Below are positions 1-49,570 of a stretch of 64,000 bases of DNA, piece by piece. Source of the stretch: an uncultured Anaerolineales bacterium (GTDB taxonomy: Bacteria > Chloroflexota > Anaerolineae > Anaerolineales > UBA11858); assembly GCA_964582965.1 (NCBI GenBank), contig CAZOUN010000001.1, positions 4,745 to 68,744 of the forward strand, written 5' to 3'. Under the pieces are notes generated by a model. It was not told where the DNA came from, ran no database searches, and saw only the letters and a list, made by a program, of their open reading frames with translations. Positions within the stretch are counted from its first letter, which is position 1, and every line of letters begins with the position of its first letter. Both the position numbers and the translations under genes were made by a program.

Positions 1-1
1 C

Positions 2-877
2 TCCCCTTGGGAAGTTTTGGCTGCTCGACGGGAAGCTGAACTCGCTCTCCAGGCAGCCAATATTGCAGGACGGCCTGGAATATGTTTAGGCTGTGTAGAA
101 CTGTCAGCTACAGCCCTGGGTGGTCTGGCTGGTGTGTCCTATGGAGGATATCGGACTACGGACTGGCTCCATGCTCCCATTATGTCTGAGTTGAAGACCA
201 ACTACGAAATGCTCTCGATCGTGACTCACTCAGTACGGACGGGTACTCTCCTTGAGGCTTATTACAATCCTATTTACGGAGGTTATGTTGGTGGTGCGGA
301 GGGTGTGGCAGTAGCAGTGGTTGGCGGATTGATCCTGCTCAACCAGTGCCATCCAGGACATACTTATAATACCCGGCCCAACCATCCTTTCTTCAACTGT
401 GATACCACCCCGGAATTGATCTGGGCAATTGCTTTAGGTGTGCAGGGATTGACCCGCAATACCAACCTGCTAGTGGATACTCTGGTTGGACCTGCTGGCG
501 GACCTGGTACCAAGACCATGTTGTATGAGAATGCCGCTTTTGTAGCAGCCACGACGGTTTCTGGACAATCATTAATGACTTCCTGCCATTCATCATCCGG
601 CGGTAGCAATCCTCGTCATGCAAGCGGTTTGGACTCCAAGATATGCGGAGAGGTTACTCATGCCGTACGCGGTATGAAACGCGACGAAGTTAATGAGATT
701 GTGAAGCAGATCATTCCTCTCTATGTGGATGATTTGGATAAAAAACCAATCGGGAAACCCTTTGAAGAAGTTTATGACATTGATAAAGTGGAACCCACCC
801 CGGAATGGCAGGGTATGTACGACGAAGTCAGGGAAGAGTTGATCAAACTCGGACTTCCTCTGGATCGGCTGGTCTAG
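2..877 (+). CDS. MtmB-family corrinoid methyltransferase, non-pyrrolysine, 5'-truncated by window edge (paralog 1, class B)
   Basis: The frame is open from base 2 (SPWEVLAARREAELAL...), so the TTG at 17 in the ORF track is not the true start. Carries GRPGICLG, IYGGYVGGAEG, NPRHASGLDSKICGEV and C-terminal KPFEEVYDIDKVEPTPEWQGMYDEV..LGLPL. It is collinear with the full-length paralogs at 17130 and 29171 and with the C-terminal half of Methanosarcina MtmB as I recall it. Confidence 0.85.
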   Translation, partial: SPWEVLAARREAELALQAANIAGRPGICLGCVELSATALGGLAGVSYGGYRTTDWLHAPIMSELKTNYEMLSIVTHSVRTGTLLEAYYNPIYGGYVGGAEGVAVAVVGGLILLNQCHPGHTYNTRPNHPFFNCDTTPELIWAIALGVQGLTRNTNLLVDTLVGPAGGPGTKTMLYENAAFVAATTVSGQSLMTSCHSSSGGSNPRHASGLDSKICGEVTHAVRGMKRDEVNEIVKQIIPLYVDDLDKKPIGKPFEEVYDIDKVEPTPEWQGMYDEVREELIKLGLPLDRLV

Positions 878-990
878 GTAGATAGATTTCCCGCCCGGTT
901 CAACACTCCGGGGGGAACGTTTCACAACCATGATAATTTTGACCTGGGTTGTTTTATCAAGATAACGGAAGGGGAAACTCAAGGAAAACT

Positions 991-1749
991 ATGAATAATA
1001 ATCAAAACTCACTCAGCTTACGAGATCGCCGGCCGTTGTATATGCAGGCGATTGACGCGATCACAAAGATGATCGATTCCGGCGATTTAAAAACCGGGTC
1101 CCAGCTTCCACCGGAAGAGGATTTTGCGGTCCAATTGGGGATCTCCCGCTCTACCTTAAGGGAGGCCCTGGGGCATCTGGAGACCAGGGGCTATATTGCC
1201 CGGAGGCAGGGCGTCGGCACCTTTGTAACCATACCAACCAGCCCCGGATTTTTTGGTGGTTTACAGCGGCTGGAACCATTTAAGAAGTTGGCAGAAGCTG
1301 CCGGAATGAAACACTCCTTAGTGGATAAAAAAGTAACCCTGGTGGGGGCGGATCAGCAATTTGCAGCACTCCTGGATACCGAGGAAGGCACAAAACTTGT
1401 CCGCGTGCAAACGGTTGAAGCTATCGATGAGATCCGCTGTGTTTATTTTGATGATTATTTCCTCTACAAGGAAGGATTGGACAAGGAATTGTCTCAACAA
1501 TCCGTCTTGACTTATATGTTTGATCTATGCTGCCCGCCGTTATCCCATACCCGGTCAGAGATCTTTGCTATTGAAGCTGATAAGGACGTAGCCGAGACAC
1601 TGGATATTCAACCGGGAAAACCAGTCTTCCACCTGGAAGAGACTTATTTTGCAGACGATGGAGGAATTGTTGGGGGAGGGTTAATGTATTTTGTGACCGA
1701 CCGCTTCCGTTTTTATATTACCCGACGAGCAGTCCGCGATCTTTTGTGA
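991..1749 (+). CDS. GntR-family transcriptional regulator, HutC/UTRA type (regulator 1)
   Basis: Winged-helix signature QLPPEEDFAVQLGISRSTLREALGHLETRGYIARRQGVGTFV, followed by a ~150-aa effector domain. The ORF-track start at 949 is TTG; the ATG at 991 follows AAGGA (981-985). Confidence 0.8.
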   Translation: MNNNQNSLSLRDRRPLYMQAIDAITKMIDSGDLKTGSQLPPEEDFAVQLGISRSTLREALGHLETRGYIARRQGVGTFVTIPTSPGFFGGLQRLEPFKKLAEAAGMKHSLVDKKVTLVGADQQFAALLDTEEGTKLVRVQTVEAIDEIRCVYFDDYFLYKEGLDKELSQQSVLTYMFDLCCPPLSHTRSEIFAIEADKDVAETLDIQPGKPVFHLEETYFADDGGIVGGGLMYFVTDRFRFYITRRAVRDLL

Positions 1750-1765
1750 TATCAGGAGAAAATGA

Positions 1766-3019
1766 ATGGACCTAACAATACACAACGCATTGCATGACAA
1801 GACCCTTGAAACTGTCCACCTGGGTATCCAGGACGGGAAGATTGCCAAGGTATCCAAAGAGGAGATTCCAGCAGGGGATAAGGCCATCGACGCCAAAGGT
1901 GCCATGGTCTCCCCGGCTTTGATCGAACCGCATTTTCATATCGAGAATGCCCTCTTATGGGACACGAACAACCTCAATAACAGCGGCACCTTATTGGAAG
2001 CTATTGATATCTATGCTGATGTGAAAGTAAAACTTACTGACGAAGATATCATGCAGCGGGCTTCTTTGACCATTCACGAAGCTTTGAAACACGGCACGTT
2101 GTGGATGCGCAACCATGTCGATATTGACCAATATGCCAAACTGGATCTGCTGCGCGGTGTTGTAGCCGCTAAAGAAAGGTTCAAGGATGTCTTTGATCTG
2201 CAGATCATTGCCTTCCCGCAGCACGGCCTGGCGAAAAATCCTGAGTCAGTCGATCTGATGTGGCAGGCGATGGAAAATGGCGCTGAGCTGGTTGGCGGTA
2301 TTCCGCACCACGAAGAATCCATGGAAGACGGCGCCAAACAGATCGAGATCGTCTTTGAAATCGCCAAGAAATATGATGTGAATATTGATATGCACATTGA
2401 CGAGACCGATGATCCTTACTGGATGTCATTGGAACTTCTAGCGGATAAAACCATAGAAGAAGGTTACCAGGGGCGAGTGACCGCTGGGCACTGCACCTCG
2501 ATGGCAGCCTGGGATAAAAAGACTTTGGCCCGGGTGATTGACAAAGTTAAGAAAGCAGAGATCAGCGTGGTTTCAAACACCCCAATTAATTTGTTGCTTC
2601 AGGGGCGGTCGGACGAGATCCTGGTTCGGAGGGGTATTGCCCGCATCAAGGAACTGATCGAAGCGGGTGTAAATGTCTGCTGTGGTCAGGACGACCTGAT
2701 GAATATGTTCTACCCGTTTGGGCGAATGGACCCCCTTGAAGTGGCCAATATAGCGGCCCATGCTGGACACCTGACTTCGCCGGATGAGATCCAGATAGTA
2801 TTTGACATGCCGCGCTATAACGCTGCTAAAAATATCGGCCTGAAAAATTATGGTGTTTACGAAGGCGCAGACGCCAACCTGATTTTAATAAACGCTGCTA
2901 CAGCAGTGGAAGCCTTGCGCCTCAAACCCGAGCGGCTGTATGTAATCAAGGAAGGGAAGATACTGGTTGAGAATTCTGTCCAAACAACCTACGCAGACTG
3001 GATTCCGACCATTGATTAA
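1766..3019 (+). CDS. CodA-type (cytosine deaminase family) metal-dependent amidohydrolase, substrate unknown
   Basis: 417 aa, collinear by eye with E. coli CodA: PHFHIE (HxH), QIIAFPQHG, GGIPHHE, IDMHIDETDD, VTAGHCTSM, RRGIARIKEL, CCGQDDLMNMFYPFG. Confidence 0.8.
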   Translation: MDLTIHNALHDKTLETVHLGIQDGKIAKVSKEEIPAGDKAIDAKGAMVSPALIEPHFHIENALLWDTNNLNNSGTLLEAIDIYADVKVKLTDEDIMQRASLTIHEALKHGTLWMRNHVDIDQYAKLDLLRGVVAAKERFKDVFDLQIIAFPQHGLAKNPESVDLMWQAMENGAELVGGIPHHEESMEDGAKQIEIVFEIAKKYDVNIDMHIDETDDPYWMSLELLADKTIEEGYQGRVTAGHCTSMAAWDKKTLARVIDKVKKAEISVVSNTPINLLLQGRSDEILVRRGIARIKELIEAGVNVCCGQDDLMNMFYPFGRMDPLEVANIAAHAGHLTSPDEIQIVFDMPRYNAAKNIGLKNYGVYEGADANLILINAATAVEALRLKPERLYVIKEGKILVENSVQTTYADWIPTID

Positions 3020-3097
3020 GGGCCTATATCCCCGAGCGAGATGGGACTGCAAAAGAAATTAACTATTGCTGAAAACAATTTATTAAGGAGATCCTTG

Positions 3098-4489
3098 ATG
3101 GAAAAATCAAAAGTCTATGATTATATGCTTTCGGTTTTGGATAAAGCTGAAAACGGACCGATTCTGGAAGAGAAGGATTGGGACAGACAGTATATTAATC
3201 AATCGATCAAAGACCTGATCAAGAAATATGATATTCAGTGGGATAAAGAAACCATGGTCCCATCAGATGACGCCCTGGCAGACCGCCTCTTTGAGGCCGG
3301 TATGGAGCTGGCCCGAGAGGTGGGCGTGTATTGCCTGGATACCAAGCGCCAGATGAAATGGAACCAAGCGGAGCTGGACTATATTTTATCCACAGCCCCG
3401 GATGAGGAAACTATCGGCTTAGGTGATGACAGTGTCACTATTCGACACAGGCTTCCGGATACAGATGCTGATATCACCACCATCGGCGGCCCTTATGGAA
3501 CACCGGTTCCTGAAGAATTATTTGTGCCGATCATGACCAGCTATGCCCAGGAACGAGATCTGGACTATATAGATAACGCTACTTTGAGCACCACCCACGG
3601 CCGTCCCATTAAAGCTGGTTCACCCTGGGAAGCAGTAGGATGCTGGCAGGAAGCCCAGCTTTCCTTTGAGGTATTGGAACGAGTTGGCCGTCCTGGCATG
3701 CCCATTGGCTGTGCGGAGGATTCGCCTTCCGAGATTGGCGAACTGGCTACCTGCACCTATAACGGGTTCCGGCAAACTGACTGGCACCATGCCTCCTTTA
3801 TTTCAGAATTGAAAGTGGCTTATGCCGAATTGACAAAAGCAATGCACTATCAGCATACCGGATCCTTTGCGCATAATTTCTACAACACAATTTACGGCGG
3901 ATATGTAGGTGGCGCAGATGGATTAGCCGTCGCAATCGTAGCTGGTGTTCTGTTAATGAAAGCAGCCCTGAATGGAAACACATTCAATCCAGGACCCAGT
4001 CATGCCCACCTGAGCTGTAGCACTTTCCCGGCCATGATCCCGGCCTTATCTCTGGGATTCCAGGCCATCAGCCGCAATACCAAATTGCTAACCTCATCAT
4101 TCCCACGCCCTATTGGCGGCCCTTGCACCAAGGAGCTTCTATATGAATCGGCAGCGGTGGGAATTGCTACTGTACCTTCAGGAATTTCAATTCTGGAAGG
4201 CATCCAATCAGCCGCGGGCCGAATCGAAGGGCATGTGACCGGACTGGAAGCCAGATTCCTGGCCCAGGTTGGCCGGGCGACAGTGGGAATGACCCGGGCA
4301 GAAGCCGATCCACTCGTCAGAAAATTGACGCCGTTATATGCGGAACAGCAGAAAACAGGAATCGCGCTGAAAGGAAAACATTTCACAGAGGCTTACGATC
4401 TCGAAACTATCCAGCCTACCGCGGAATGGCAAGGAATTTATGAAGAAGTCTGCCAGGAAATGGAAGACATGCTTGGATTGAAACTATAG
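3098..4489 (+). CDS. MtmB-family methyltransferase, non-pyrrolysine (paralog 2, class A)
   Basis: AAGGAG (3085-3090) lies 7 nt before ATG 3098, so the ORF-track start at 3041 is less likely. Motifs: VPSDDALADRLFEAG, GLGDDSV, GRPGMPIG (Gly at the Pyl-aligned site), IYGGYVGGADG, NPGPSHAHLSC, C-terminal FTEAYDLETIQPTAEWQGIYEEV...LGLKL. Confidence 0.88.
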   Translation: MEKSKVYDYMLSVLDKAENGPILEEKDWDRQYINQSIKDLIKKYDIQWDKETMVPSDDALADRLFEAGMELAREVGVYCLDTKRQMKWNQAELDYILSTAPDEETIGLGDDSVTIRHRLPDTDADITTIGGPYGTPVPEELFVPIMTSYAQERDLDYIDNATLSTTHGRPIKAGSPWEAVGCWQEAQLSFEVLERVGRPGMPIGCAEDSPSEIGELATCTYNGFRQTDWHHASFISELKVAYAELTKAMHYQHTGSFAHNFYNTIYGGYVGGADGLAVAIVAGVLLMKAALNGNTFNPGPSHAHLSCSTFPAMIPALSLGFQAISRNTKLLTSSFPRPIGGPCTKELLYESAAVGIATVPSGISILEGIQSAAGRIEGHVTGLEARFLAQVGRATVGMTRAEADPLVRKLTPLYAEQQKTGIALKGKHFTEAYDLETIQPTAEWQGIYEEVCQEMEDMLGLKL

Positions 4490-4516
4490 GTTTTGGAATC
4501 GAAAAGGATTAATAAC

Positions 4517-5896
4517 ATGAAAAAAGAAAATTACGAATATCTGGCTTCAGTTTTAGAGAAAGCTGATACCGGCCCGGTAATTGAGGAAAAAGAGTGGGAT
4601 TACCAGTATATTGGCGCCAAGACCAAGGATCTGATCAAAAAATATGATATCAGCTGGGACAAAGATACCTATGTGCCCGCTGATGATGATCTGGCGGATC
4701 GCCTGTATCAGGCAGGTTGGGAGCTGGCCCTGGAAAGCGGTGTATACTGCCGCAATACAAAGAAGCAAATGCTTTGGACAGAGGATGAACTAAAAGGAAT
4801 TATCGATTCAGGACCTTCCGAATTGGTTGTTGGAACTGGTGATGATGAAGTTGTAATTCGTCAACGCCGGCCGGAACAGCCCTCCCGGGTCACTATCCTG
4901 GGCGGCGCTTACGGTACCCTGATCGAAGAAGACCTTTTTGGCGCAATGGTGGAAGCCTATGCAAAAGAACCTCTGATCGATATTGTTGAACCCCCTTCCA
5001 TTCCCACTGCTTTTGGCAGGACCATCCGCATTCAATCTCCCTGGGAAGTGATGGCGGCCAGGCGGGAATCGGATCTGGCCCTGGCAGCAGTCAAGCGGGC
5101 TGGCCGACCGGGAATTTGCATTGGCGCGGCAGCTACATCAGGAAGTGAAATTATCGAGCTGGCTGCAACCAGCTATAACGCTTATCGACAAACCGATTGG
5201 CATCACACTTCTTTCGTCAGTGAAAACAAGGTCACTTATGCGGACCTGACCCGGGCAGCTCATTTCTACCTGACCGGATCGGTTGCACACACTTTTTGCG
5301 ATCCGATCTACGGAGGCTACCTTGGGGGTAAAGAGGGCATAGCAATTGGCTGCGTCGCCGGCCCAATCCTCCTGAGAGCAACATTGCTCGGGGATACGGT
5401 TAATGCAGGCCCCAGCCACGCCCATCTAAGCTGTGATACTCATGCGGATCTGCTCGCCGCTCAGGCCCTCAGCTTCCAGGCTATCGCCCGCAACACCCAT
5501 TTGCTGAAAGGGATTCATATTCGACCGGCCCACGGACCGGGAACCAAAGAGATCCTCTATGAAGTAGCAGCCATGGCCATCATGGGTGTGACTTCCGGAG
5601 TGGATTACCTTAAATCTGTCCAATCTGCCTGCGGAGTAAATATGGGACATACATCCCCGGTTGAAGCCCGGTTATGCGCCCGGGTTGCCCATGCTTCGGA
5701 AGCCCTCAGCAGAGAAGAAGGAAACGCCCTGGTGACCCAGCTGGTGAACAAATACCAGGATTTGATACCGACTGCAGATACAGGAATACATTTCCGCGAT
5801 AGCTACAATTTGGAAACCTTGGAACCGGCCCAAGCCTGGCAGAAAATATATGAAGAAGTTGTCTCCGAACTTAGAGAATTGGGTCTATCTATCTAA
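4517..5896 (+). CDS. MtmB-family methyltransferase, non-pyrrolysine (paralog 3, class A)
   Basis: ATG 4517 follows AAAGGA; the ORF-track start at 4493 is TTG. Motifs: VPADDDLADRLYQAG, GTGDDEV, GRPGICIG, IYGGYLGGKEG, NAGPSHAHLSC, C-terminal FRDSYNLETLEPAQAWQKIYEEV..LGLSI. Confidence 0.88.
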   Translation: MKKENYEYLASVLEKADTGPVIEEKEWDYQYIGAKTKDLIKKYDISWDKDTYVPADDDLADRLYQAGWELALESGVYCRNTKKQMLWTEDELKGIIDSGPSELVVGTGDDEVVIRQRRPEQPSRVTILGGAYGTLIEEDLFGAMVEAYAKEPLIDIVEPPSIPTAFGRTIRIQSPWEVMAARRESDLALAAVKRAGRPGICIGAAATSGSEIIELAATSYNAYRQTDWHHTSFVSENKVTYADLTRAAHFYLTGSVAHTFCDPIYGGYLGGKEGIAIGCVAGPILLRATLLGDTVNAGPSHAHLSCDTHADLLAAQALSFQAIARNTHLLKGIHIRPAHGPGTKEILYEVAAMAIMGVTSGVDYLKSVQSACGVNMGHTSPVEARLCARVAHASEALSREEGNALVTQLVNKYQDLIPTADTGIHFRDSYNLETLEPAQAWQKIYEEVVSELRELGLSI

Positions 5897-5917
5897 CCAA
5901 GATTTAAAGAGGCAGAA

Positions 5918-7306
5918 ATGATCGAACCAAAAGTAAAGATCGATGAATTCGTAAATATTTTGGATAAAGCAGAAAATGGCCCCAGGGTGGATATCAAAGA
6001 ATGGGACCAGGTTTATATTTACCAAACCATCAAGGATCTGGTTGAGAAATATGATATCCGTATAGATGTCAAAAATCCGGGAGTTCCTTCTGATGACGAT
6101 CTTGCAGACCGGGTCTTTGAAGCGGCCATGGACCTGGCGGTCCAGAGCGGTGTTTACTGCACGGATACCCAACGCCAGATGATTTTCAGCAGGGATGAAT
6201 TGGAAAAAGTCCTTGCCCGGGTTCCGGAAGAGGTCCAGATCGGCGAAGGACCAGACACTCGTGTAATCAAGAAGAGAATGGTGGACCAGGAAGGCCATGT
6301 AACTATAGGGGGAGGCTTCTGGGGTGTTGTGGTGCCTGAGGACATGCTATTACCCATGACCATGGCGTATGCCCAGATAGAGGAAAATGATTTTCTCTGC
6401 ACCGGGGCTTTGAGAACCACCTATGGGCGCCCCATCCGGGCATACTCTCCTTGGGATACCCTGGCCTGCTGGCAGGAAATGCGCCAGACCTTTGAAGCCA
6501 TTGATCGTGTGGGGCGTCCCGGGATGACAATTTCCGGGCCGAATACCAGTGCCAGCGCCATCGGAACAGTTACTACGGTCACACATGGATGTCTCCGCCC
6601 ATCAGATTATGGAAGTGTTGCCTTCATGAGCGAATTGAAGGTGTCATATGATGACCTGATCCGTGCCTGCCATTACGTCCAGACCAATTCCTTTGCGCAC
6701 AATTTTTACAACCCGATCTATGGCGGTTATGCAGGCGGGGCTGAAGGTGTGGCGGTCGCCCATGTGGCAGGTTTCATATTAATGAAAGCCACTTTGTTTG
6801 GTGAAGCCTTCAATGCCGGGCCCAGTCATGCCCATATGAGCACCAATACTTTCCCACCCTTGATCCCGGCCCAGGCACTGGCACATCAGGCTTTGAGCCG
6901 GAATACCAATATCACCTGCGCGAATTTCACCCGGCCCAATGCTGGCCCGGGAGAGAAAGACCTGCTCTATGAAATTGCAGCCTACCAATTGGCGACTGTG
7001 ACCTCTGGAGTTGAAATAGCTACAGGTGTGCAAACTGCTACTGGACGTCATGAAGCTCATTGTTCACCGTTAGAGGTCCGGTTTTTGATCAAGGTTGTTC
7101 GGGCTGCAGAAAAAATGACCCGAAAAGAGGCAGACCCGATTGTTAAGAAACTGATCGCCCTCTACAGAGACGGCCAGAAAGAACAAAAGATCGGCAAGCC
7201 ATTTAATGAAGTCTATGATTTAGAGACTTTGGAACCCAAATCAGAATGGCAGTCCGTTTTTGATGAAGTAGTAGATGAACTCGTAAGTTTGGGACTAAAG
7301 CTTTAA
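5918..7306 (+). CDS. MtmB-family methyltransferase, non-pyrrolysine (paralog 4, class A)
   Basis: RBS AGAGG precedes ATG 5918. GRPGMTISGPNTS resembles archaeal GRPGMGV-Pyl-GPETS; the Pyl-aligned codon is TCC (Ser206) at 6533-6535. Also IYGGYAGGAEG, NAGPSHAHMST, C-terminal FNEVYDLETLEPKSEWQSVFDEV..LGLKL. Confidence 0.88.
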   Translation: MIEPKVKIDEFVNILDKAENGPRVDIKEWDQVYIYQTIKDLVEKYDIRIDVKNPGVPSDDDLADRVFEAAMDLAVQSGVYCTDTQRQMIFSRDELEKVLARVPEEVQIGEGPDTRVIKKRMVDQEGHVTIGGGFWGVVVPEDMLLPMTMAYAQIEENDFLCTGALRTTYGRPIRAYSPWDTLACWQEMRQTFEAIDRVGRPGMTISGPNTSASAIGTVTTVTHGCLRPSDYGSVAFMSELKVSYDDLIRACHYVQTNSFAHNFYNPIYGGYAGGAEGVAVAHVAGFILMKATLFGEAFNAGPSHAHMSTNTFPPLIPAQALAHQALSRNTNITCANFTRPNAGPGEKDLLYEIAAYQLATVTSGVEIATGVQTATGRHEAHCSPLEVRFLIKVVRAAEKMTRKEADPIVKKLIALYRDGQKEQKIGKPFNEVYDLETLEPKSEWQSVFDEVVDELVSLGLKL

Positions 7307-7326
7307 TTATTTTGAAAGGATTAGCT

Positions 7327-8193: not shown

Positions 8194-8196
8194 TCT

Positions 8197-42088: not shown

Positions 42089-42089
42089 A

Positions 42090-43127
42090 TTAATCCTTTT
42101 TTCTCATAATGGCACTGCCGATTAAAAAGAACATTACAATAGTAGCCTGAATGAAATGTACTAACGCTTGTTCCAGGCCGACAGCGCGATGCATAAAATC
42201 AGCACCAATAACCAGTGCGGCAAACAGAAATGCTGCAAATAACACACCAAATGGATTTAATTGCCCGAGGATAGCAATCAGAACTGCTGTATATCCATAC
42301 CCAGACGCGAACCCTTGGGCGGCGAAGTAGTATACGCCCATTATCTGAATTGCCCCAGCTAAACCAGCAAATGCACCACTAATCAACATGACTGATACAA
42401 TAGAACGTTCGACTTTAATTCCTGCACCTTCAGCAGCTGAAGCATTTGATCCAACAGCACGGAGCTCATAACCAAAAGCTGTTTTCCAAAGAATAAATTG
42501 CACCAAGAATACACATGCAATAGCGATGAGAAAACCGATATGGATTCGTGAGCCGAATAAATTAGGTAAGCGGGCTGATAAATCCAGTTGAGCTGTTTGG
42601 GGGAGATAATATTCTGGATTTTTTAGGGGAATGCGCACAATATACGCCAGTCCAAAAAGGGCCACAAAATTCATCATAAGACTAACTACAATTTCACTCA
42701 ATCCTAATCTCGCCTTGAGAAGTCCTGGCAACAATGCCCATAATGCTCCACACACAACCCCCATGATTAACATAACGGGGATTATAACGGCGGAAGGAAT
42801 ATAGCCACCCCATTCTAGTCCTATCCAAATTGCACCAAGCCCACCGGCAATATATTGGCCTTCAGCACCAATATTCCAAATCTGACACCGATATGCAATT
42901 ACGAGGCCTAAACCGATAAGTAGTAATGGCGTGGCTAATCGAGCCGTTTCTGATATAGCCCTCATTGTTCCAAAGGCGCCCTCGAGCAACGAGGCGAATG
43001 CTTGAATTGGATTAACCCCCAATAAAAGAATGATGATCCCTGTAATAGGTAAAGATAATGAAGTGATTAAAATAATGAGTACATTGCGGGCGATTGGATT
43101 TTCTCTGCTTTTTTCAATTAATCCCAT
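42090..43127 (-). CDS. ABC transporter permease, transporter 2 (second subunit)
   Basis: 345 aa polytopic. Paralogous layout to 22781-23869. Confidence 0.85.
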   Translation of the reverse strand: MGLIEKSRENPIARNVLIILITSLSLPITGIIILLLGVNPIQAFASLLEGAFGTMRAISETARLATPLLLIGLGLVIAYRCQIWNIGAEGQYIAGGLGAIWIGLEWGGYIPSAVIIPVMLIMGVVCGALWALLPGLLKARLGLSEIVVSLMMNFVALFGLAYIVRIPLKNPEYYLPQTAQLDLSARLPNLFGSRIHIGFLIAIACVFLVQFILWKTAFGYELRAVGSNASAAEGAGIKVERSIVSVMLISGAFAGLAGAIQIMGVYYFAAQGFASGYGYTAVLIAILGQLNPFGVLFAAFLFAALVIGADFMHRAVGLEQALVHFIQATIVMFFLIGSAIMRKKD

Positions 43128-43169
43128 GTGCTTGTACCTCTAGTCGCCGTGGTAGGATAGATTAATATT

Positions 43170-44690
43170 TTATTTCCCCTCTGACACCCCAGCCATAAGC
43201 AGGCCGAGAGTTTCTTTCTTGGTCTCCGATGTTATCAAAGCGCTCATAATTCGACCCTGATATATAATTGCAATTCGATCGCTCAATTTAATTACTTCAT
43301 CAAGATCAGCAGAGATGAGTAGAACTCCAACACCACTATTTCGCTGTTCAAGAAGTTTTCCATGTACAAATTCTATTGCACCTACGTCAAGGCCGCGAGT
43401 TGGCTGACATGCGACTATTACTTCGGGTTTAGAACTCAGTTCGCGAGCGAGAATCAAGCGTTGAGCATTCCCCCCAGATAGTTTTCCACCTTTTGTGGAT
43501 ATGTTTGGGGTTCGAATTTGGTATTCGTTCACTAACTCTGTGGAGTGACCATTGATTTCTTTTAATCTGAGAAAACCGTGGGAGGAATAAGGTTCTTTTA
43601 AGTGCTTTCCTAGCATGAGGTTTTCTGAAACTGTAAAATTTCTAATAATCCCACGTAAATATCTATCAGATGGAATATAAGCAAGGGTTTGTCTTCGATG
43701 TCGTACCGATGCTTTGGTAATATCTTTTCCATTAAGAGATATTGAACCACTTATTGATGGGCGTAATCCTATGATAGACTCTTCCAACTCAACTTGACCA
43801 TTACCATCCACGCCCGCGATCCCTAATATTTCTCCAGGTTTTACATTAAGGGTGACATTATTTACAGCTGATAAGCCGCGGTCATCTTCTACATGAAGAG
43901 CATTTACTCCCAAAACCGGTTTATTTGAAGGTTTATTTTTTTCTCTTGGAGGTATTTTCTTGATATCAGTTCCTACCATCATTCGGGCTAATTCGTATCG
44001 GTCTGTATCTTTTGTGTTCAGAGTGTTAATGACTTTCCCATCGCGCATAACTGTTACTCGGTGAGTCATCATCATTACTTCATCGAGTTTATGGGAAATG
44101 AAAATAACAGACTTCCCGACTGAGATCAGAGCATTTATTATTGATGTTAATTGTATGACTTCTTGAGGAGTGAGCACAGATGTGGGTTCATCAAGGATGA
44201 GAGTCTGAGCACCTCGATACAATGCTCGCAGGATTTCAATACGCTGCTGTTCACCTACAGACAGTTGCCACATTAAGCGATTAGGATCAACCGGCAGCTG
44301 ATATTTTTCGGATAAGTTTTTAATTCTCGAAGATACTTGATTTTTGTCTTCAAGAAGAGGTTCTCTGGGTGATGAGGCTCCAAGTAAAAAATTCTCAAGA
44401 ACAGTGAATCGAGGAACAAATTGAAAATGTTGATGCACCATCCCGATTCCAAAACTAATGGCAGCATTAGAACTCCCGATTTTTACAGGTTTTCCATTTA
44501 TCTCTATTTCACCTTCGTCTGGATTATATAAACCGTAAAGAACATTCATTAAAGTGGTTTTTCCTGCCCCATTCTCGCCAAGTAACCCATGCACCTCGCT
44601 TTCCCTGAGGCTGAAATCCACTTTGTGGTTTGCTATTACGCCAGGAAAAGATTTGGTAATTCCTGACATTTTTACGGCATCTACCACCAT
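43170..44690 (-). CDS. ABC transporter ATP-binding protein, duplicated-ATPase CUT2/nucleoside type, transporter 2
   Basis: 506 aa with GENGAGKTT, LSVGEQQRIEI, GVDGNGQVEL, LSGGNAQR. Confidence 0.9.
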   Translation of the reverse strand: MVVDAVKMSGITKSFPGVIANHKVDFSLRESEVHGLLGENGAGKTTLMNVLYGLYNPDEGEIEINGKPVKIGSSNAAISFGIGMVHQHFQFVPRFTVLENFLLGASSPREPLLEDKNQVSSRIKNLSEKYQLPVDPNRLMWQLSVGEQQRIEILRALYRGAQTLILDEPTSVLTPQEVIQLTSIINALISVGKSVIFISHKLDEVMMMTHRVTVMRDGKVINTLNTKDTDRYELARMMVGTDIKKIPPREKNKPSNKPVLGVNALHVEDDRGLSAVNNVTLNVKPGEILGIAGVDGNGQVELEESIIGLRPSISGSISLNGKDITKASVRHRRQTLAYIPSDRYLRGIIRNFTVSENLMLGKHLKEPYSSHGFLRLKEINGHSTELVNEYQIRTPNISTKGGKLSGGNAQRLILARELSSKPEVIVACQPTRGLDVGAIEFVHGKLLEQRNSGVGVLLISADLDEVIKLSDRIAIIYQGRIMSALITSETKKETLGLLMAGVSEGK

Positions 44691-44729
44691 CTAACATCCT
44701 TTGGTAATCAGTAAATTTGAGAAAATCCA

Positions 44730-44765
44730 GACCCACCTCGTAATAAATTAATTACAAGGTGGGTC
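44730..44765 (-). terminator. Stem-loop / attenuating terminator after the substrate-binding-protein gene of transporter 2
   Basis: GACCCACCT-C-GTAAT ... ATTAC-A-AGGTGGGTC forms 14 bp with one mismatch. On the transcribed (minus) strand it is followed by TGGATTTTCTC. Confidence 0.45.
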
Positions 44766-44795
44766 ATTCTTAGAAAGATGCTACTTGTTCAGTTT

Positions 44796-45887
44796 TTACT
44801 CTGCGGCTGCAGGGATATAAGGCACCTCAAATGAGCCGTTTTTGATTTCCTGAATTGCATCATTAGCCATTTGTAAAGCATCGTCTTGGATCAAGTAGGC
44901 CAAAGCAGGATTGACATCAACTCGCAATGCATCGTCCGCTACACCAAAGCTATAGAACTTTCCAGGCATGAATGTTCCTTCTTCAATCTCTTCAATAAAG
45001 AGGGAGACCAAAGGGTAAAGATCCCAAATCATGCTTAGAGCAACGTTGTCTGGCGCAATACTGCTCATGTCACCGACGTAACTAGATGCATAAATGCCAG
45101 CTTCTTCAGCGGCCTCGATAGCCCCTAGTGTTGGCCCAAATCCGCATGATGCAACGTAGTCTGCACCTGCAGAAACATGGGCCAATGTCGCTTCTTTCGC
45201 TTTAGCAACGTCTGCCCAGTCCCCAACAACAGTATAGAGGACATCCGCATCGGGATTTACTGCCTGAGCGCCTAATTTGAAAGATTCATACATGGAATGG
45301 CATACTGGAATATCAAAGCCCGAAAGGAAGCTGTATAACCCCGTTTCACTTATGCCACCGGCCGTAATGCCCAATAGATAAGCTGCCTGATAAAATGGTT
45401 GATCATAGTCAGCAACATTTTCTGCGGTTTTTTGTATTCCACCCGGCCATGCAAAACTTACTTCGGGATAGTCTGGAGCTACATTAAATAATGTTTCTCC
45501 ATAGCCAAAGCTGTGGGTTATTATGAAATTATATCCATTATCAGCGTATTCTCGAATTACCCGCTCTGCATCAGCTGCAGCCACACTTTCTGAAAAATCG
45601 ACCTCAAATCCATGCTCGGTTGCAACTTGGAGAGCTGCCTGTTGCATTTGGTAATTCCAGCTGAGATCATCAACGGTTCCTGAGAGCAATACAGCCATAC
45701 GAATCGTTGGTTCGGTAGATACTTCTTCTGTGTCAGCAGCTGTTTCTTCTTCGGCAGCGGGAGCTTCTCCCACAACTTCATCGGCAATTGTTACTTCCTC
45801 GGTTGGGACCGCTGGAGAACAACCTGCGGCAACGATGGAAAGAATCATTAGGATAGAAAACACCCACCCAATTTTCTTTATTGTCAT
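44796..45887 (-). CDS. BMP-family ABC substrate-binding lipoprotein, transporter 2
   Basis: Signal peptide with lipobox VAAGC. BMP-like core: VDDLSWNYQMQQA, FIITHSFGYGE. RBS AAAGGAGA. Confidence 0.8.
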   Translation of the reverse strand: MTIKKIGWVFSILMILSIVAAGCSPAVPTEEVTIADEVVGEAPAAEEETAADTEEVSTEPTIRMAVLLSGTVDDLSWNYQMQQAALQVATEHGFEVDFSESVAAADAERVIREYADNGYNFIITHSFGYGETLFNVAPDYPEVSFAWPGGIQKTAENVADYDQPFYQAAYLLGITAGGISETGLYSFLSGFDIPVCHSMYESFKLGAQAVNPDADVLYTVVGDWADVAKAKEATLAHVSAGADYVASCGFGPTLGAIEAAEEAGIYASSYVGDMSSIAPDNVALSMIWDLYPLVSLFIEEIEEGTFMPGKFYSFGVADDALRVDVNPALAYLIQDDALQMANDAIQEIKNGSFEVPYIPAAAE

Positions 45888-45992: not shown

Positions 45993-47387
45993 TTAGTCCC
46001 AGGGCCCGACGGTGAATTGCAGTCCCCATTTGGCCAGGTCTGCTTTGACCCGGCGGTAGCATTCTTTCCATTCTTCGATCGGCTGCAGAGATTTCAGGTC
46101 ATAAGCTTCTTGGAATGGTAAACCTCGTTTGGGAGTATCAAATGTGGACTCATATTTCTCGAGGCATTTAAGGGCAATTTCATTTGCCTTTTCGCGGGTG
46201 ATGCCGCTATTTGCGGTTGCTACACCAACTTCACCCTGGAAACCAGCTTCCAGGCCGGTATGGTGGTTGGTTTCAAATCCACCGGTGGCGCCCACACCAT
46301 GTTGGGTGTAACCACAAACAGTACTGATGACTGCGTGCTGGGCGACTTCGTAAAGCAGCTCATCAGTCACGGGGCCGGAAACACAGAAGGGATCACAGGT
46401 CCAGACGATATGGGAATTGCGGGCCATGGCCTGTCCGGCCATTGCAAGCACATACATACCCCATTCATCCGAGTTGTTGGCTCGTTTGATGTGGGTGATG
46501 CTGAGGTAATGATAGTCAGCAAAGTACGCAATTACACCTAGGAGTGTTTCTGCTACGGAAACAACGGCAACGCCGTCAGGACCGCCGCCTATGCCGCCGG
46601 TCAGGGGAGTCATGAGGTTAATAATATGTCCGCCATAATTGAGCAGGTGGGGAACACGGTTGAGCTGATCGTCGTCGATTTTTAATTCGCACATCTGGGC
46701 TACAAGACGTCCGTCGCAGGGGCGCAGACCGTTGATAGGTTCACTAGCGGCCATTTTGCCGATGGCGGTCATGCCAGTCGCGGCATCGCCAATATGCATG
46801 CCGGGTTTTCCAACACGTCGAACAGCCTCGCGAGCTGTAGCGGCATCACGCTGAACAGCCATGACTTCCATGAGGGTGCCGGCCATGATGTCGTATCCAT
46901 TAAAGGTCCGGGTGGCGCCAGATTCTATTGCGTCCACAAATGGTTCCTGGGCGTAGCTGGTCAGGTTAGCCAGGTAGTATTCTTCGTCGCAAGCCTGTCC
47001 AGCAGGACCGGTCAGATTGAGAGGGGGATTGGGATCTTCAATGTTCCTGTGTTTGGCAATAACCATGTCTTTTCCCTCGCCGAGATAGAGTGTGTCGGGA
47101 GCGAGTCGGAGAGCGTCAAGGATCTCTTCTTTGGAAAATTTAATTACGCGCTGGGTGTCGAGGTGGTATGCACCACAATCGACCAACAGCTGCAAACCAG
47201 CCTGGAAGACGCGGTCAGCCATAGCGTCGTCAGTGGGGCAGACATTCTTGGGGTCGTATTTGATGTCGTATTCTTTGAGCAGTTCCTGCACTCGTTTGGC
47301 AAGCATGAGGTCATATTCCACCTCTTTCATAAACTTCCCGCTGCGGGAACGCTGGTAAATTTCTATTAATCGTTCTCTTGTTAACAT
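45993..47387 (-). CDS. MtmB-family methyltransferase, non-pyrrolysine, divergent class C (paralog 11)
   Basis: 464 aa with CPTDDAMADRVFQAG, GEGKDMV, GKPGMHIGD, LTGGIGGGP, C-terminal FQEAYDLKSLQPIEEWKECYRRV..WGLQF. Confidence 0.82.
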   Translation of the reverse strand: MLTRERLIEIYQRSRSGKFMKEVEYDLMLAKRVQELLKEYDIKYDPKNVCPTDDAMADRVFQAGLQLLVDCGAYHLDTQRVIKFSKEEILDALRLAPDTLYLGEGKDMVIAKHRNIEDPNPPLNLTGPAGQACDEEYYLANLTSYAQEPFVDAIESGATRTFNGYDIMAGTLMEVMAVQRDAATAREAVRRVGKPGMHIGDAATGMTAIGKMAASEPINGLRPCDGRLVAQMCELKIDDDQLNRVPHLLNYGGHIINLMTPLTGGIGGGPDGVAVVSVAETLLGVIAYFADYHYLSITHIKRANNSDEWGMYVLAMAGQAMARNSHIVWTCDPFCVSGPVTDELLYEVAQHAVISTVCGYTQHGVGATGGFETNHHTGLEAGFQGEVGVATANSGITREKANEIALKCLEKYESTFDTPKRGLPFQEAYDLKSLQPIEEWKECYRRVKADLAKWGLQFTVGPWD

Positions 47388-47444: not shown

Positions 47445-48104
47445 TTATTTGAGCAAAGAATTGACTAACTCCACTGCGCCAGAGGCAGTAAAGGAATAAC
47501 CATTTGCGCCGATTTCATCAGCATAAGGCTGGTCGGTTGACCCGCCGCCGATAATGAATTTGTATTTGTCTGCCAGATTGAGCTCTCTGAGCAGGTCTGC
47601 CACTTCGCGGCATCCTGCGCGGGTGATGCTCATTAACGCTGAGGCAGCGATCACGTCAGCGCTGTTCGTTTCTGCGGTTTCAATAAAAGTAGCTGCTGAA
47701 ACATCTTTACCAACATCTACAACTTTGTAACCGTGGGCTTTGAACAAGCTTCCAACAATGTTTTTACCAATATCGTGAATGTCACCCTTGACAGCACCGA
47801 GGACAATTGTGCCTTTGGTATAAGATTCGGCGCCACTTTTAGTTAAAGCATCTTCAATGACTTTGGAGCAAGCGTTGCCGGCTTCACCCGCTGCCATTAG
47901 TTCCGGAAGGAAAATATCCAGATCCTCGAATTTTTGTCCTACTTCTGAAAGGGTGGGCACAACTACCTGCTGGATCAAGTCCAGAGGATCTACTCCTTCT
48001 TTAATAGCTGCTTCGGTTACTGCTGTGGCTACCTGGGTGTCGCCACTCGCAAGCGACTTGGCTAGTTCCTCGGCATACTTCTTGGGGACTGTTGCATCGG
48101 TCAT
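47445..48104 (-). CDS. Corrinoid methyl-carrier protein 5
   Basis: 219 aa with GDIHDIGKN, ASALMSIT, IIGGGS. Confidence 0.88.
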   Translation of the reverse strand: MTDATVPKKYAEELAKSLASGDTQVATAVTEAAIKEGVDPLDLIQQVVVPTLSEVGQKFEDLDIFLPELMAAGEAGNACSKVIEDALTKSGAESYTKGTIVLGAVKGDIHDIGKNIVGSLFKAHGYKVVDVGKDVSAATFIETAETNSADVIAASALMSITRAGCREVADLLRELNLADKYKFIIGGGSTDQPYADEIGANGYSFTASGAVELVNSLLK

Positions 48105-48211
48105 GATTTGCCTCCTGAGATAAGGGATAAAGAGATATTTTTTGCTAGGTGGGTTGAAAAATAATCAAGTAGAGCACAAGGACAGCAGCCAAGGCGACAA
48201 CGAAGGTGATA

Positions 48212-48230
48212 TAGGATGGCTGCCATCCTA
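48212..48230. promoter_or_regulatory. 19-bp perfect palindrome, candidate operator
   Basis: TAGGATGGC-T-GCCATCCTA lies immediately downstream of the -10 of the minus-strand promoter. It also overlaps the -35 region of a possible plus-strand promoter. Confidence 0.5.
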
Positions 48231-48235
48231 CAAAA

Positions 48236-48264
48236 AGTATATAATAAGGGGCATCGAGTGTCAA
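48236..48264 (-). promoter_or_regulatory. Near-consensus sigma70-type promoter for the minus arm (corrinoid 5 / paralog 11 operon)
   Basis: The minus strand reads TTGACA (48264-48259), 17-nt spacer, TATACT (48241-36). This is about 125 nt upstream of the corrinoid protein start at 48104. Confidence 0.55.
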
Positions 48265-48322
48265 TATGACTTTTATAACGGGTTTTAGAGTATACTTTTG
48301 AAAGCTTATCTTAGGAGGATTG

Positions 48323-48760
48323 ATGACTTCAGCGCTATCATATGTTGTGTTTGTGGGGTTGGTGGGTGGAGTTGCGGTTGCCGTTCAGGCAGCTTTTGCT
48401 GGCATTATCACAGAACAGCTGGGAGTCTTGGAGAACGCATTTATTGTCTTTGGCGGTGGTTCTCTGGTTGCTCTGATCTTGATCCTGCTAAATCAAGGGG
48501 GGAAGATCAGGGAGTGGCAATCTTTGCCATGGTATGTCTTTCTGGCAGGTCCCCTGGGTATTGTGATCATTACTTCGATCGGTTATGCTATCCCCCGGAT
48601 CGGTCTGGCATCAACCTTGACCGTAATTGTTGTTAGTCAACTGATTATCGGAGTGGTTTTTGATCATTTTGGCTGGTTTGCCGCCTTAAGACCCCTGGAC
48701 CTCAATCGTGCCATAGGGATATTGCTGCTCTTTATTGGCACCTGGGTAGTTTTACGGTAG
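48323..48760 (+). CDS. DUF606/YdcZ-type small DMT-superfamily membrane protein 2
   Basis: AGGAGG (48313-48318) precedes ATG 48323; the ORF-track TTG is at 48320. About 5 helices. AIPRIGLASTLTVIVVSQLIIGVVFDHFGWF...LLLFIGTWVV. Confidence 0.6.
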   Translation: MTSALSYVVFVGLVGGVAVAVQAAFAGIITEQLGVLENAFIVFGGGSLVALILILLNQGGKIREWQSLPWYVFLAGPLGIVIITSIGYAIPRIGLASTLTVIVVSQLIIGVVFDHFGWFAALRPLDLNRAIGILLLFIGTWVVLR

Positions 48761-48805
48761 TCTAAAAAACTCTTTAATAGCGGGATTTATTTAATGAAGA
48801 TATAT

Positions 48806-49570
48806 CTAAGAAGATGCCACGTGGCGGATTACGTGGAAATATCCAGCATCTTTAAACAGGTGTTCTTTAGACAAGAACAATTTAGAGTTATCAGAACTGA
48901 ATCCAATATCCTCAACTACCAGAACTGCCATTGATGGATCATATCCAGTAAACTCATCTGGAAGATGACAATCCCGTAATAAAGCTGGATGAATTATTGA
49001 AGTTAGAAATTTTACTTCTTGCTGGCAAGTATGAGCAAAGAATTGGAAAAAAGGCTCTGTCGCCCCTGGTTCCATGACATCGGTATCAGATAAACACTTT
49101 TGATAGATCCATTCTGGAATATAGTTCTCAAAATAGATGATTGGATCAGCGTCAGCGGTAAACATTTTCTGTATGTGGAGCACATTGCTGCCGTTATTAA
49201 TATCCAGCTTATCTGATATGTCCTTATCTGCAGATATTATTTGAGCGCTCAATTGCTTAAACCCGGGTGTATGGCCACGGGTCGAAATTCGCTCCATTAC
49301 ATCATAGGATAGATATAAGGGATTGACGATGCTTGGGGTATTGCTGACAAAAGTCCCTATACCTCTTTTCTTAATTACATATCCCAATTCTCCCAGTCTG
49401 GAAAAAGCAGTTCGGATCGTTGGCCTGCTTACTTTGTACAGATCAGCCAGCTCATTTTCGGATGGCAGCTTGCTGCCCGGTGTAAATTCACCATTGAGGA
49501 TGCTGTTCAGGATGATGTCATATACTTGATCTGCAAGGGGAGGGTTTTGGATGGGAAGATTCTCGGTCAT
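48806..49570 (-). CDS. GntR-family transcriptional regulator, HutC/UTRA type (regulator 3)
   Basis: KLPSENELADLYKVSRPTIRTAFSRLGELGYVIKKRGIGTFV plus a UTRA-length effector domain. Closely parallels regulator 2. Confidence 0.8.
   Translation of the reverse strand: MTENLPIQNPPLADQVYDIILNSILNGEFTPGSKLPSENELADLYKVSRPTIRTAFSRLGELGYVIKKRGIGTFVSNTPSIVNPLYLSYDVMERISTRGHTPGFKQLSAQIISADKDISDKLDINNGSNVLHIQKMFTADADPIIYFENYIPEWIYQKCLSDTDVMEPGATEPFFQFFAHTCQQEVKFLTSIIHPALLRDCHLPDEFTGYDPSMAVLVVEDIGFSSDNSKLFLSKEHLFKDAGYFHVIRHVASS

Follow-up and report, generated by a model that had tools for sequence, protein, structure and literature searches.

A gene island with at least twelve non-pyrrolysine MtmB paralogs in an uncultured Anaerolineales bacterium: a candidate corrinoid system for N-methylated purine-like heterocycles

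The window analysed here is a stretch of 64,000 nucleotides from an uncultured Anaerolineales bacterium (assembly GCA_964582965.1, contig CAZOUN010000001.1, positions 4,745–68,744 of the forward strand). It contains an island of genes for corrinoid-dependent methyl transfer, in which eleven genes encode homologs of the methyltransferase MtmB without pyrrolysine (Pyl), each in the place of a substrate-specific methyltransferase (MT1). The island is very probably a multi-substrate corrinoid demethylation system, and the genes that lie among the MtmB genes suggest methylated purine-like heterocycles as possible substrates. Corrinoid methyltransferase systems of this type and MtmB homologs without Pyl were already known; the probable substrate class is new here, and the number of paralogs is unusually large.

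The island is arranged in two convergent arms that meet near 36.0 kb. The intergenic gaps are shorter than 50 bp in 27 of 41 cases, with a median of 28 bp. The right-hand end is the GntR gene at 49570, and housekeeping genes lie beyond it (DegV, Tex, Lpd-like, SurE, HAD, glucokinase, transketolase and PtsI). The left-hand end was extended by contig L057 of an independent Logan assembly (SRR8862235), which is identical to the window over a 14.5-kb overlap and reaches 6.9 kb further left. Directly left of window position 1, L057:1–6903 carries an ABC ATPase and two permeases (a third ABC transporter set of the island), an EamA protein, two corrinoid proteins and a twelfth MtmB. Thus, the island has in total at least 12 MtmB paralogs and 7 corrinoid proteins. 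The first-pass annotation of this DNA had described the two arms and their short gaps as found here; its count of eleven MtmB genes holds for the window but falls short for the island, which is cut by the window edge.

MtmB-family methyltransferases of the island

The MtmB genes of the window are as follows, with E-values against the Pfam MtmB profile.

2–877, plus strand: MtmB MT1 'a', C-terminal 291 residues; E 4.9e-50
3098–4489 (ORF from 3041), plus strand: MtmB MT1 'b'; E 1.9e-94; orthologs up to 93% identical in metagenome-assembled genomes (MAGs) of Anaerolineales
4517–5896 (ORF from 4493), plus strand: MtmB MT1 'c'; E 7.3e-93; ortholog 87% identical
5918–7306, plus strand: MtmB MT1 'd'; E 4.3e-91
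15629–17005, plus strand: MtmB MT1 'e', the most divergent copy; E 2.8e-66; ortholog 82% identical
17130–18506, plus strand: MtmB MT1 'f'; E 9.3e-97
25322–26731, plus strand: MtmB MT1 'g', between genes for xanthine dehydrogenase (XDH) family subunits; E 5.8e-95
29171–30544 (ORF from 29156), plus strand: MtmB MT1 'h'; E 7e-94
36774–38150, minus strand: MtmB MT1 'i'; E 9.2e-92
39592–40992, minus strand: MtmB MT1 'j', Asn at the Pyl position; E 2.8e-103
45993–47387, minus strand: MtmB MT1 'k'; E 1.1e-95

In a profile search, all eleven ORFs match Pfam PF05369 (MtmB) with 171–347 bits, far above the gathering cut-off of 25 bits, and with E-values from 4.9e-50 to 2.8e-103. The match runs from about position 4 to position 450 of the 450-position profile in the ten complete copies. 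Copy 'a' is truncated by the window edge; its complete gene encodes 462 residues and starts upstream of the window (L057:6392–7780, identical in the overlap). No other Pfam family, MTTB (PF06253) included, was returned for the eleven ORFs at an E-value limit of 0.01. The motif series [PS]xDDxLADR, GxGxDxV, GRPG[MI], GGYxGG and the C-terminal YDLE..EW is located at equivalent positions in every window copy. Copy 'j' is aligned with the crystal sequence of Methanosarcina barkeri MtmB (1TV2/1L2Q) over residues 11–452 with an E-value of 2e-65.

The structure of copy 'g' was modelled with AlphaFold2 (AF2), resulting in a predicted local distance difference test score (pLDDT) of 92. According to the Foldseek comparison, the model fits 1TV2, 1NTH and 1L2Q with an E-value of 1e-46, TM-scores of 0.93–0.95 and a root-mean-square deviation of 1.4 Å, whereas the TM-scores with MttB and MtgB structures are only about 0.5. 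Because the Pfam match is to MtmB only and the TM-scores differ in this way, the MT1s of the window are assigned to the non-pyrrolysine MtmB family and not to the MttB superfamily.

The column of Pyl202 of M. barkeri MtmB (GRPGMGV-O-G) is occupied by Gly, Ser, Ala, Thr, Asn or Ile in the window copies, and none of the eleven ORFs has an internal in-frame stop codon. The twelfth paralog on L057 has Ser at this position and GQPGR in place of GRPGM. Among 132 MtmB homologs, the residue is Gly in 83, and Lys or a stop codon was found in none. The in-frame UAG codon for pyrrolysine, which defines Pyl-MtmB, is absent from all the window copies. As no tRNA gene is present within the window, no tRNA-Pyl is present there either. 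Positions 229 and 259, both Glu in M. barkeri and in contact with the pyrrolysine ring there, are mostly His/Leu and Phe/Tyr/Leu in the homologs. Residues R196, P197, G198, D226, E235, K237 and the GG..GG pair (G265-G266, G269-G270) are common to M. barkeri MtmB and the homologs and are nearly invariant. These results bear out the first-pass annotation, which had recognized one MtmB-type family with a shared end-to-end motif series in these eleven ORFs, without pyrrolysine and outside the MttB family.

The window proteins and the Pyl-MtmB of M. barkeri (1L2Q, 1NTH, 1TV2) share the Pfam family, the length, the TIM-barrel fold, the scaffold motifs and a partner corrinoid protein of the DxHxxG type. 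In contrast to the M. barkeri enzyme, to which the 12 paralogs of the island are 27–32% identical, the window paralogs have no UAG codon or pyrrolysine (mostly Gly instead), and positions 229 and 259 are replaced. Their host is bacterial, the back end is tetrahydrofolate and not coenzyme M, and the surrounding genes are of a heterocycle-catabolic kind. The same logic of Pyl loss followed by substrate diversification is seen in the MttB superfamily, with MtgB (glycine betaine), MtpB (proline betaine), MtcB (carnitine) and MtyB (gamma-butyrobetaine). Those systems likewise consist of a corrinoid protein, a pterin-binding methyltransferase and an activase in anaerobic bacteria, but they belong to a separate protein family, and they sit with betaine-type transporters.

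Each of the 12 paralogs has an ortholog in other genomes with 64–93% identity, whereas its nearest sibling within the island is only 34–61% identical. The siblings are therefore old duplicates that have been maintained as separate lines. The best orthologs (83–93% identical, with the gene order kept) are found in uncultured Anaerolineales MAGs (loci L008 and L012 of the genome scan described below), which places the host among Anaerolineales-type bacteria. Positions 202–205, 228–229, 257–261, 267 and 332–335 are conserved to at least 85% inside each of 13 orthologous groups and differ among the groups. Such group-specific residues near the former Pyl site are the pattern expected if one scaffold has acquired differing substrate specificities. 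The identities and the group-specific residues are also consistent with the proposal of the first-pass annotation that each paralog would take a different methyl donor.

The family is large: 1,596 members were found at E-values up to 1e-3 and 444 at E-values up to 1e-30 in a library of 1.84 billion representative proteins. In an exact-sequence look-up, copies 'j' and 'k' had no record, and copy 'g' was on record. The family is not wholly uncharacterised, as the first-pass annotation had assumed in stating that no MtmB without Pyl had an assigned substrate. In March 2026, MtqB of Methanococcoides methylutens Q3c (ACT9XH_RS04775) was reported to use tetramethylammonium and choline, as the first non-Pyl MtmB with a function (PMC13044021). 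The enzyme also has trace methylamine activity, and the rest of the tree of 1,061 sequences is labelled 'unknown function' (PMC13044021). Growth of 'Ca. Formimonas warabiya' on dichloromethane induces a non-Pyl protein of the MtmB superfamily more strongly than any other protein, and no role has been assigned to it (PMC9768040). In metagenome work, mtmB in bacteria or Anaerolineae is read as methylamine use (e.g. PMC11264602).

Methyl-transfer partners and heterocycle-type genes

The partner genes for methyl transfer, together with small genes next to them, are as follows.

8699–9361, plus strand: corrinoid protein 1 (DLHDIG, residue 107); Pfam B12-binding, B12-binding_2
12163–13392, plus strand: URO-D-superfamily methyltransferase, CdmB-like; Pfam URO-D, E 8e-19
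14889–15605, plus strand: corrinoid protein 2 (DMHDIG); Pfam and motif
32195–33049, plus strand: pterin-binding methylcorrinoid:tetrahydrofolate methyltransferase (MT2); Pfam Pterin_bind, E 7e-31
33053–33739, plus strand: MetH-activation-domain-like protein, 228 residues, no Pfam family; AF2 pLDDT 90
33687–35564, plus strand: RACo-type ATP-dependent reductive activase; Pfam Fer2, RACo_linker, Raco_middle, RACo_C_ter
35592–35975, plus strand: small AH_C/GGACT-fold protein; Pfam AH_C, E 6e-38
36078–36734, minus strand: corrinoid protein 3 (DMHDIG); Pfam and motif
38167–38799, minus strand: corrinoid protein 4 (DLHDIG); Pfam and motif
47445–48104, minus strand: corrinoid protein 5 (DIHDIG); Pfam and motif

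The DxHDIG motif is present in all five corrinoid proteins of the window. With these B12-binding DxHxxG proteins, the pterin-binding MT2 and the activase of RACo architecture, the methyl-transfer chain (MT1, corrinoid protein, MT2, activase) is complete by gene content. The MT2 is closest to the Desulfitobacterium pterin-binding methyltransferase 4O0Q (E 4e-46), MeTr/AcsE and the folate module of MetH among PDB entries.

The gene for the 228-residue protein is located between those for the MT2 and RACo, and homologs lie beside MT2, RACo or both in five other loci. The top Foldseek match of its model is 1J6R (TM0269, a stand-alone MetH activation domain; E 1.6e-11), followed by 18 MetH reactivation domains. 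About 760 homologs are annotated as 'hypothetical', and Cys is invariant at positions 96, 136, 212, 215 and 221. On the basis of the modelled fold, the protein may provide a second, S-adenosylmethionine-dependent reactivation route for the corrinoid proteins. A relation to the DUF1638 protein of the Oscillospiraceae locus described below, as a diverged member, was rejected, since there is no real BLASTP similarity and the fold is that of the MetH activation domain.

The only PDB match of the URO-D protein is CdmB, the chloromethane MT1 of Acetobacterium dehalogenans (9RUI, E 3.7e-32). The protein scores far below the cut-offs of the MtaA/MtbA models, and its N-terminal half matches no URO-D model. 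The order XDH molybdopterin (Mo) subunit, URO-D, amidohydrolase is kept in L012 and L044/45, and URO-D directly precedes the Mo subunit in L010. By sequence relationship the URO-D protein is probably a further MT1; a role as MT2 is less likely, because its sole PDB relative CdmB is an MT1.

The O-demethylase and Cdm systems of acetogens and Desulfitobacterium (PMC13222342) resemble the island in that common corrinoid proteins, a pterin-binding MT2 and an activase serve many substrate-specific MT1 paralogs. In the island, however, the expanded MT1 family is MtmB and not URO-D, and the neighbours suggest N-heterocycles and not methoxylated aromatics or chloromethane. The plus arm is closed by the stand-alone AH_C protein (allophanate-hydrolase C-terminal, GGACT-fold), which was seen in none of 50 related genome loci.

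The five corrinoid proteins, the pterin-binding methyltransferase, the URO-D-family protein and RACo had all been named in the first-pass annotation. The multi-substrate demethylation proposed there is plausible. What it overlooked is the other part of the island. Approximately half of the island consists of genes other than methyltransferases, interleaved with the MtmB genes at operon spacing. This set comprises XDH-family subunits (one FAD, two [2Fe-2S] and two molybdopterin), five amidohydrolases (four of them listed below), two Bmp-type ABC importers, three GntR/UTRA regulators and two DMT/YdcZ proteins.

949–1749, plus strand: GntR/UTRA (HutC-type) regulator 1; Pfam GntR, UTRA
1766–3019, plus strand: amidohydrolase, cytosine-deaminase-like; Pfam Amidohydro_3/1
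7312–8193, plus strand: XDH-family FAD-binding subunit; Pfam FAD_binding_5, CO_deh_flav_C
8197–8670, plus strand: XDH-family [2Fe-2S] subunit 1; Pfam Fer2_2, Fer2
9404–9862, plus strand: small DMT/YdcZ membrane protein; Pfam DMT_YdcZ, E 1.1e-17; position kept in L012, L014, L019 and L044/45
9878–12145, plus strand: XDH-family molybdopterin subunit 1; Pfam Ald_Xan_dh_C, MoCoBD_1, MoCoBD_2; best NCBIfam PucD/XdhA, below cut-off
13405–14808, plus strand: amidohydrolase, nucleobase/nucleoside-deaminase-like; Pfam Amidohydro_1; NCBIfam below cut-off
18515–19903, plus strand: amidohydrolase, deaminase-like; Pfam Amidohydro_1, E 5.6e-75
19970–24798, plus strand: Bmp-type ABC importer set 1 (binding protein 19970–21154, ATPase 21237–22781, permeases 22781–23869 and 23866–24798); Pfam Bmp, ABC_tran, BPD_transp_2
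24843–25319, plus strand: XDH-family [2Fe-2S] subunit 2; Pfam Fer2_2, Fer2
26908–29178, plus strand: XDH-family molybdopterin subunit 2; Pfam; best PDB matches 4-hydroxybenzoyl-CoA reductase, nicotinate dehydrogenase, then XDH
30808–32157, plus strand: amidohydrolase, deaminase-like; Pfam; NCBIfam 5'-deoxyadenosine deaminase, 518 bits against a cut-off of 522
38834–39586, minus strand: GntR/UTRA regulator 2; Pfam
41138–45887, minus strand: Bmp-type ABC importer set 2 (permeases 41138–42088 and 42090–43127, ATPase 43170–44690, binding protein 44796–45887); Pfam
48320–48760, plus strand: second small DMT/YdcZ-like membrane protein, 146 residues; BLASTP to 9404–9862, E 3e-10, 33% over 72 residues
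48806–49570, minus strand: GntR/UTRA regulator 3, right end of the island; Pfam

Translational coupling to MtmB genes is seen for some of the XDH-family genes. The XDH FAD subunit gene follows the end of MtmB 'd' after 5 bp, MtmB 'g' follows the second [2Fe-2S] gene after 2 bp, and the first 8 bp of MtmB 'h' are shared with the end of the second Mo subunit gene. Both Mo subunits keep the catalytic Glu (E730 of Rhodobacter capsulatus, E1261 of the bovine enzyme) and the GxGEP motif. There is a single FAD subunit for two Mo and two [2Fe-2S] subunits (7312–12145 and 24843–29178), and the second XDH-like set either shares it or functions without one.

The amidohydrolase at 1766–3019 scores 384 bits against the NCBIfam cytosine deaminase subfamily (cut-off 438), and its PDB relatives are CodA (E 1.4e-75) and AtzC (E 1e-51). 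For the other four, the best models are 5'-deoxyadenosine, 8-oxoguanine and guanine deaminase and TRZ/ATZ, all below cut-off. The PDB relatives of the protein at 30808–32157 are the methylthioadenosine/S-adenosylhomocysteine (MTA/SAH), guanine and 8-oxoguanine deaminases. Similarity to AtzB, AtzC and TrzN is also seen among the amidohydrolases. Because AtzB/AtzC-type relatives cleave N-alkylamines off rings, it can be supposed that the amidohydrolases free methylamine or dimethylamine from N-methylamino heterocycles such as N6-methyladenine and N2-methylguanine, and that the MtmB homologs are Pyl-independent methylamine methyltransferases. The family name and fold are indeed those of the methylamine enzyme, and MtqB shows a trace of the activity. 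The replacement of the Pyl position, 229 and 259 alike speaks against this explanation, and twelve conserved orthologous lines with group-specific pockets are hard to square with one or two small substrates. We consider it very unlikely.

The closest PDB entries to the Bmp binding proteins are Brucella 3S99 and AtzT (6PI5). For the set 2 protein the E-values are 1e-32 and 6.5e-29, respectively, and the nucleoside-binding PnrA is distant (E 4e-8). Guanine is bound to AtzT with a dissociation constant of 0.11 µM, and adenine is modelled in 3S99 (PMC6834077). In AtzT, Tyr45 and Trp194 stack on either side of the ligand, and Ser97, Glu165, Asn218 and Asn220 form hydrogen bonds with it (PMC6834077). 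Among 23 MtmB-linked binding proteins, Trp194 is kept in all 23 and Trp or Tyr is found at position 45 in 20; both window proteins have Trp at both positions of this aromatic sandwich. The equivalents of Glu165, Asn218 and Asn220 are E/L/S in window copy 1 and the hydrophobic V/C/F in copy 2, and they vary across the homologs. As the hydrogen-bonding residues for guanine are not all kept, the ligand should not be plain guanine. Such a site would fit heteroaromatic ligands that are planar and offer fewer N-H donors than guanine does, as would result from N-methylation.

The importers, deaminases and hydroxylases, with catabolic-type GntR/UTRA regulators, dominate the island, and no genes for a biosynthetic scaffold are present there. 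Corrinoid methyl transfers are reversible in principle, so that methyl-tetrahydrofolate could be used to N-methylate heterocycles, for example in a secondary metabolite; with this gene content, such a biosynthetic direction is highly improbable.

Other genes were observed within and beside the island. The ORF at 48320–48760 sits in a 701-bp gap (48104–48806) and is the sole plus-strand gene in the minus-strand arm. Adjacent genes for a SurE 5'/3'-nucleotidase and a NagD-type HAD phosphatase (54334–55982, minus strand) lie 5 kb from the island; the pair could supply nucleosides or bases from nucleotides, or could be unrelated housekeeping. At the right end of the window (59928–63948), phosphotransferase system (PTS) enzyme I, an ARMT1-like damage-control phosphatase and a PTS EIIC of the galactitol/ascorbate type are seemingly unrelated to the island.

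Recurrence of the gene association in other genomes

A profile built from the subfamily alignment was scanned against one genome per species, and 50 loci in 34 MAGs were obtained (numbered with L). With a single protein as the query, no relative was found in the genome scan. The loci are mostly from Anaerolineales/Chloroflexota, with a few from Oscillospiraceae/Clostridia, Verrucomicrobiota, Acidimicrobiia and Bathyarchaeia. When the window proteins were matched to the ORFs of the loci, an XDH subunit, amidohydrolase or Bmp protein was located within 10 kb of the MtmB homolog in 41 of the 50 loci (28 of the 34 MAGs). A corrinoid protein is present in 40 loci and a GntR regulator in 23.

The block at 949–14808 of the window, in the order GntR, amidohydrolase, three MtmB, XDH (FAD, FeS), corrinoid protein, DMT, XDH (Mo), URO-D and amidohydrolase, is syntenic in L012 and slightly varied in L014 and L019, and its second half occurs again in L044/45. 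Metagenome contigs with 67–72% identical orthologs carry the same mixture of genes. In Moorella naiadis (GCA_051020825.1, L058:8420–17612), GntR/UTRA, corrinoid protein, MtmB, amidohydrolase, pterin methyltransferase, Bmp and XDH Mo genes stand in one row, and the MtmB has Gly at the Pyl position. An Oscillospiraceae MAG (L048:1278–13162) carries an NCS1 cytosine/purine permease, amidohydrolase, GntR/UTRA, RACo, XDH Mo, corrinoid protein, MtmB, URO-D and DUF1638. By their gene content, these two loci are compact one-MT1 versions in Bacillota, and they are the most telling cases of the association. These results show that the association of MtmB with heterocycle-type genes is conserved across phyla.

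This recurrence bears on the explanation nearest to the characterised family member, in which small quaternary or tertiary amines such as choline, tetramethylammonium and betaines lose their methyl groups to the MT1 paralogs, and a separate N-heterocycle pathway is served by the XDH, amidohydrolase and Bmp genes. MtqB, so far alone among non-Pyl MtmB proteins in having a demonstrated function, takes tetramethylammonium and choline, and a small residue in place of Pyl fits a substrate that is already charged. MtqB resembles the window proteins as a non-Pyl MtmB family member that methylates a neighbouring corrinoid protein, and it shows that the family can use substrates other than methylamine. 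Compared by context, however, it is part of a single mtqBC pair in a methanogen, with the methyl group passed to coenzyme M and no XDH, amidohydrolase or Bmp neighbours described, whereas the island has a bacterial host, a pterin-binding MT2, at least 12 paralogs and all three kinds of neighbour. No betaine- or choline-type transporter (BCCT, OpuA-type) is present in the island, where the importers are all Bmp-type. A separate pathway also agrees poorly with the translational coupling of MtmB and XDH subunit genes, and with an association that recurs in three phyla, minimal one-MT1 modules included. According to this evidence, the quaternary-amine explanation is unlikely.

Some further genes were observed near MtmB clusters: a peptidase-M20 amidohydrolase in five loci (L014, L016, L017, L019 and L037) and a luciferase-like oxidoreductase in five loci (L014 and L016–L019). 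In addition, L009 and L055 contain an MttB-family gene, and L007 and L035 encode a Rieske/VanA-type oxygenase.

Proposed catabolic scheme and its meaning

The main clue to the substrate class is the conserved and partly coupled link of the MtmB genes to XDH-family enzymes, nucleobase-type deaminases and purine-type binding proteins, and on this ground heterocycles are suggested. We propose that the island is a catabolic unit for methylated nucleobases, methylxanthines or close analogues. Bmp-type ABC importers of the purine-base-binding kind would bring in N-methylated purine-like compounds. The MT1s, at least 12 non-Pyl MtmB proteins, would pass the N-methyl group to the Co(I) of a neighbouring corrinoid protein; the pocket left by the loss of Pyl would hold the ring and present its N-methyl group to Co(I), and each MT1 would be tuned to another base or methyl position. 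The CdmB-like MT1 of the URO-D family may also methylate a corrinoid protein. The single pterin-binding MT2 would then hand the methyl group to tetrahydrofolate, and RACo, perhaps with the MetH-activation-like protein, would bring oxidised Co(II) back into the cycle. Once demethylated, the ring would lose amino groups through the amidohydrolases and gain hydroxyl groups through the XDH-family Mo enzymes, and the GntR/UTRA regulators would control the sub-operons. In this scheme we infer the substrate class, the direction in which methyl groups flow, the assignment of a single substrate to each paralog, and that demethylation precedes attack on the ring.

We regard the full reading, a position- or base-specific N-demethylation of methylated purine-like heterocycles that feeds tetrahydrofolate, as evenly balanced between right and wrong. 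More tentatively, and with somewhat less than even confidence, the island would be the first case of an anaerobic system in which N-demethylation of methylated purine-type bases depends on a corrinoid (modified nucleobases set free from RNA and DNA, or methylxanthines such as caffeine), as a trait widespread in uncultured Anaerolineales and compact in Moorella and gut Oscillospiraceae. In the open-access literature, no paper was found that ties MtmB homologs to XDH- or purine-type genes, or a corrinoid protein to methylxanthine, methylguanine or trigonelline. A 2026 preprint describes slight anaerobic N-demethylation of caffeine in sediments and names no enzyme.

Several points weigh against this scheme. 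Nothing in the sequence identifies a substrate. No Rfam family was found within the window at gathering or permissive thresholds, and a purine-type riboswitch is thus lacking. Wood-Ljungdahl or methyl-oxidation genes are likewise absent from the window. None of the amidohydrolases or XDH subunits of the island reaches an NCBIfam equivalog cut-off. The co-occurrence counts given above are raw, without a genome-wide background control, and the related loci are not independent because they are mostly from one order, Anaerolineales. The Arg that binds xanthine in canonical XDH (R310 of R. capsulatus, R880 of the bovine enzyme) is Val or Phe in the window Mo subunits (VMMV, VMWF), and Arg is found in none of 21 MtmB-linked homologs. 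The Mo subunits score 549–578 bits against PucD/XdhA of NCBIfam, where the cut-offs are 780–784, and they score higher against the structures of 4-hydroxybenzoyl-CoA reductase and nicotinate dehydrogenase (3HRD) than against XDH. Since the Mo subunits have no such Arg and are nearer to structures other than XDH, the ring may be a pyridine, pterin, triazine or other heterocycle instead of a purine. Lastly, the sole characterised non-Pyl MtmB uses quaternary amines (PMC13044021).

With the Arg missing and the scores below threshold, an assignment of the Mo enzymes as canonical xanthine dehydrogenase was rejected. The substrates could then be other N-methylated heterocycles, namely pyridinium compounds (trigonelline, homarine, 1-methylnicotinamide), pterins, creatinine/N-methylhydantoin or alkylated s-triazines, with Mo enzymes of the nicotinate-hydroxylase type. 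The likeness of the amidohydrolases to AtzB, AtzC and TrzN and of the binding protein to AtzT points in this direction, as do the Mo subunits themselves, and the CodA-like enzyme family includes creatinine deaminases. On the other side, a set of four or five deaminases for amino groups would be superfluous for pyridine carboxylates, an NCS1 permease of the cytosine/purine family is present in the Oscillospiraceae version, and adenine or guanine is the ligand in the nearest binding proteins of known structure (PMC6834077). On balance, non-purine rings are rather unlikely.

For purine-like substrates, a comparison is offered by the aerobic caffeine and methylxanthine route of Pseudomonas, with N-demethylation by the Rieske enzymes NdmABCDE and C8 oxidation by caffeine dehydrogenase. 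That route has the same proposed substrate class, and it likewise combines several position-specific demethylases with an XDH-family enzyme. However, its demethylases are oxygen-dependent Rieske monooxygenases that release formaldehyde, with no relation in sequence or chemistry to corrinoid methyl transfer.

For much of the non-Pyl MtmB family, the conserved link at the operon level yields a concrete substrate class that can be tested. The seven-gene module of Moorella, a named species, should be easier to test than MAGs. If the substrate class is true, the island would represent an oxygen-free route for the removal of N-methyl groups from methylated nucleobases and methylxanthines, and a common annotation error, in which bacterial mtmB is taken as methylamine use, would be corrected. 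The paralogs would then offer a natural series of specificity variants built on a common scaffold, and the abundant Anaerolineales of sediments would have an added source of C1 units.

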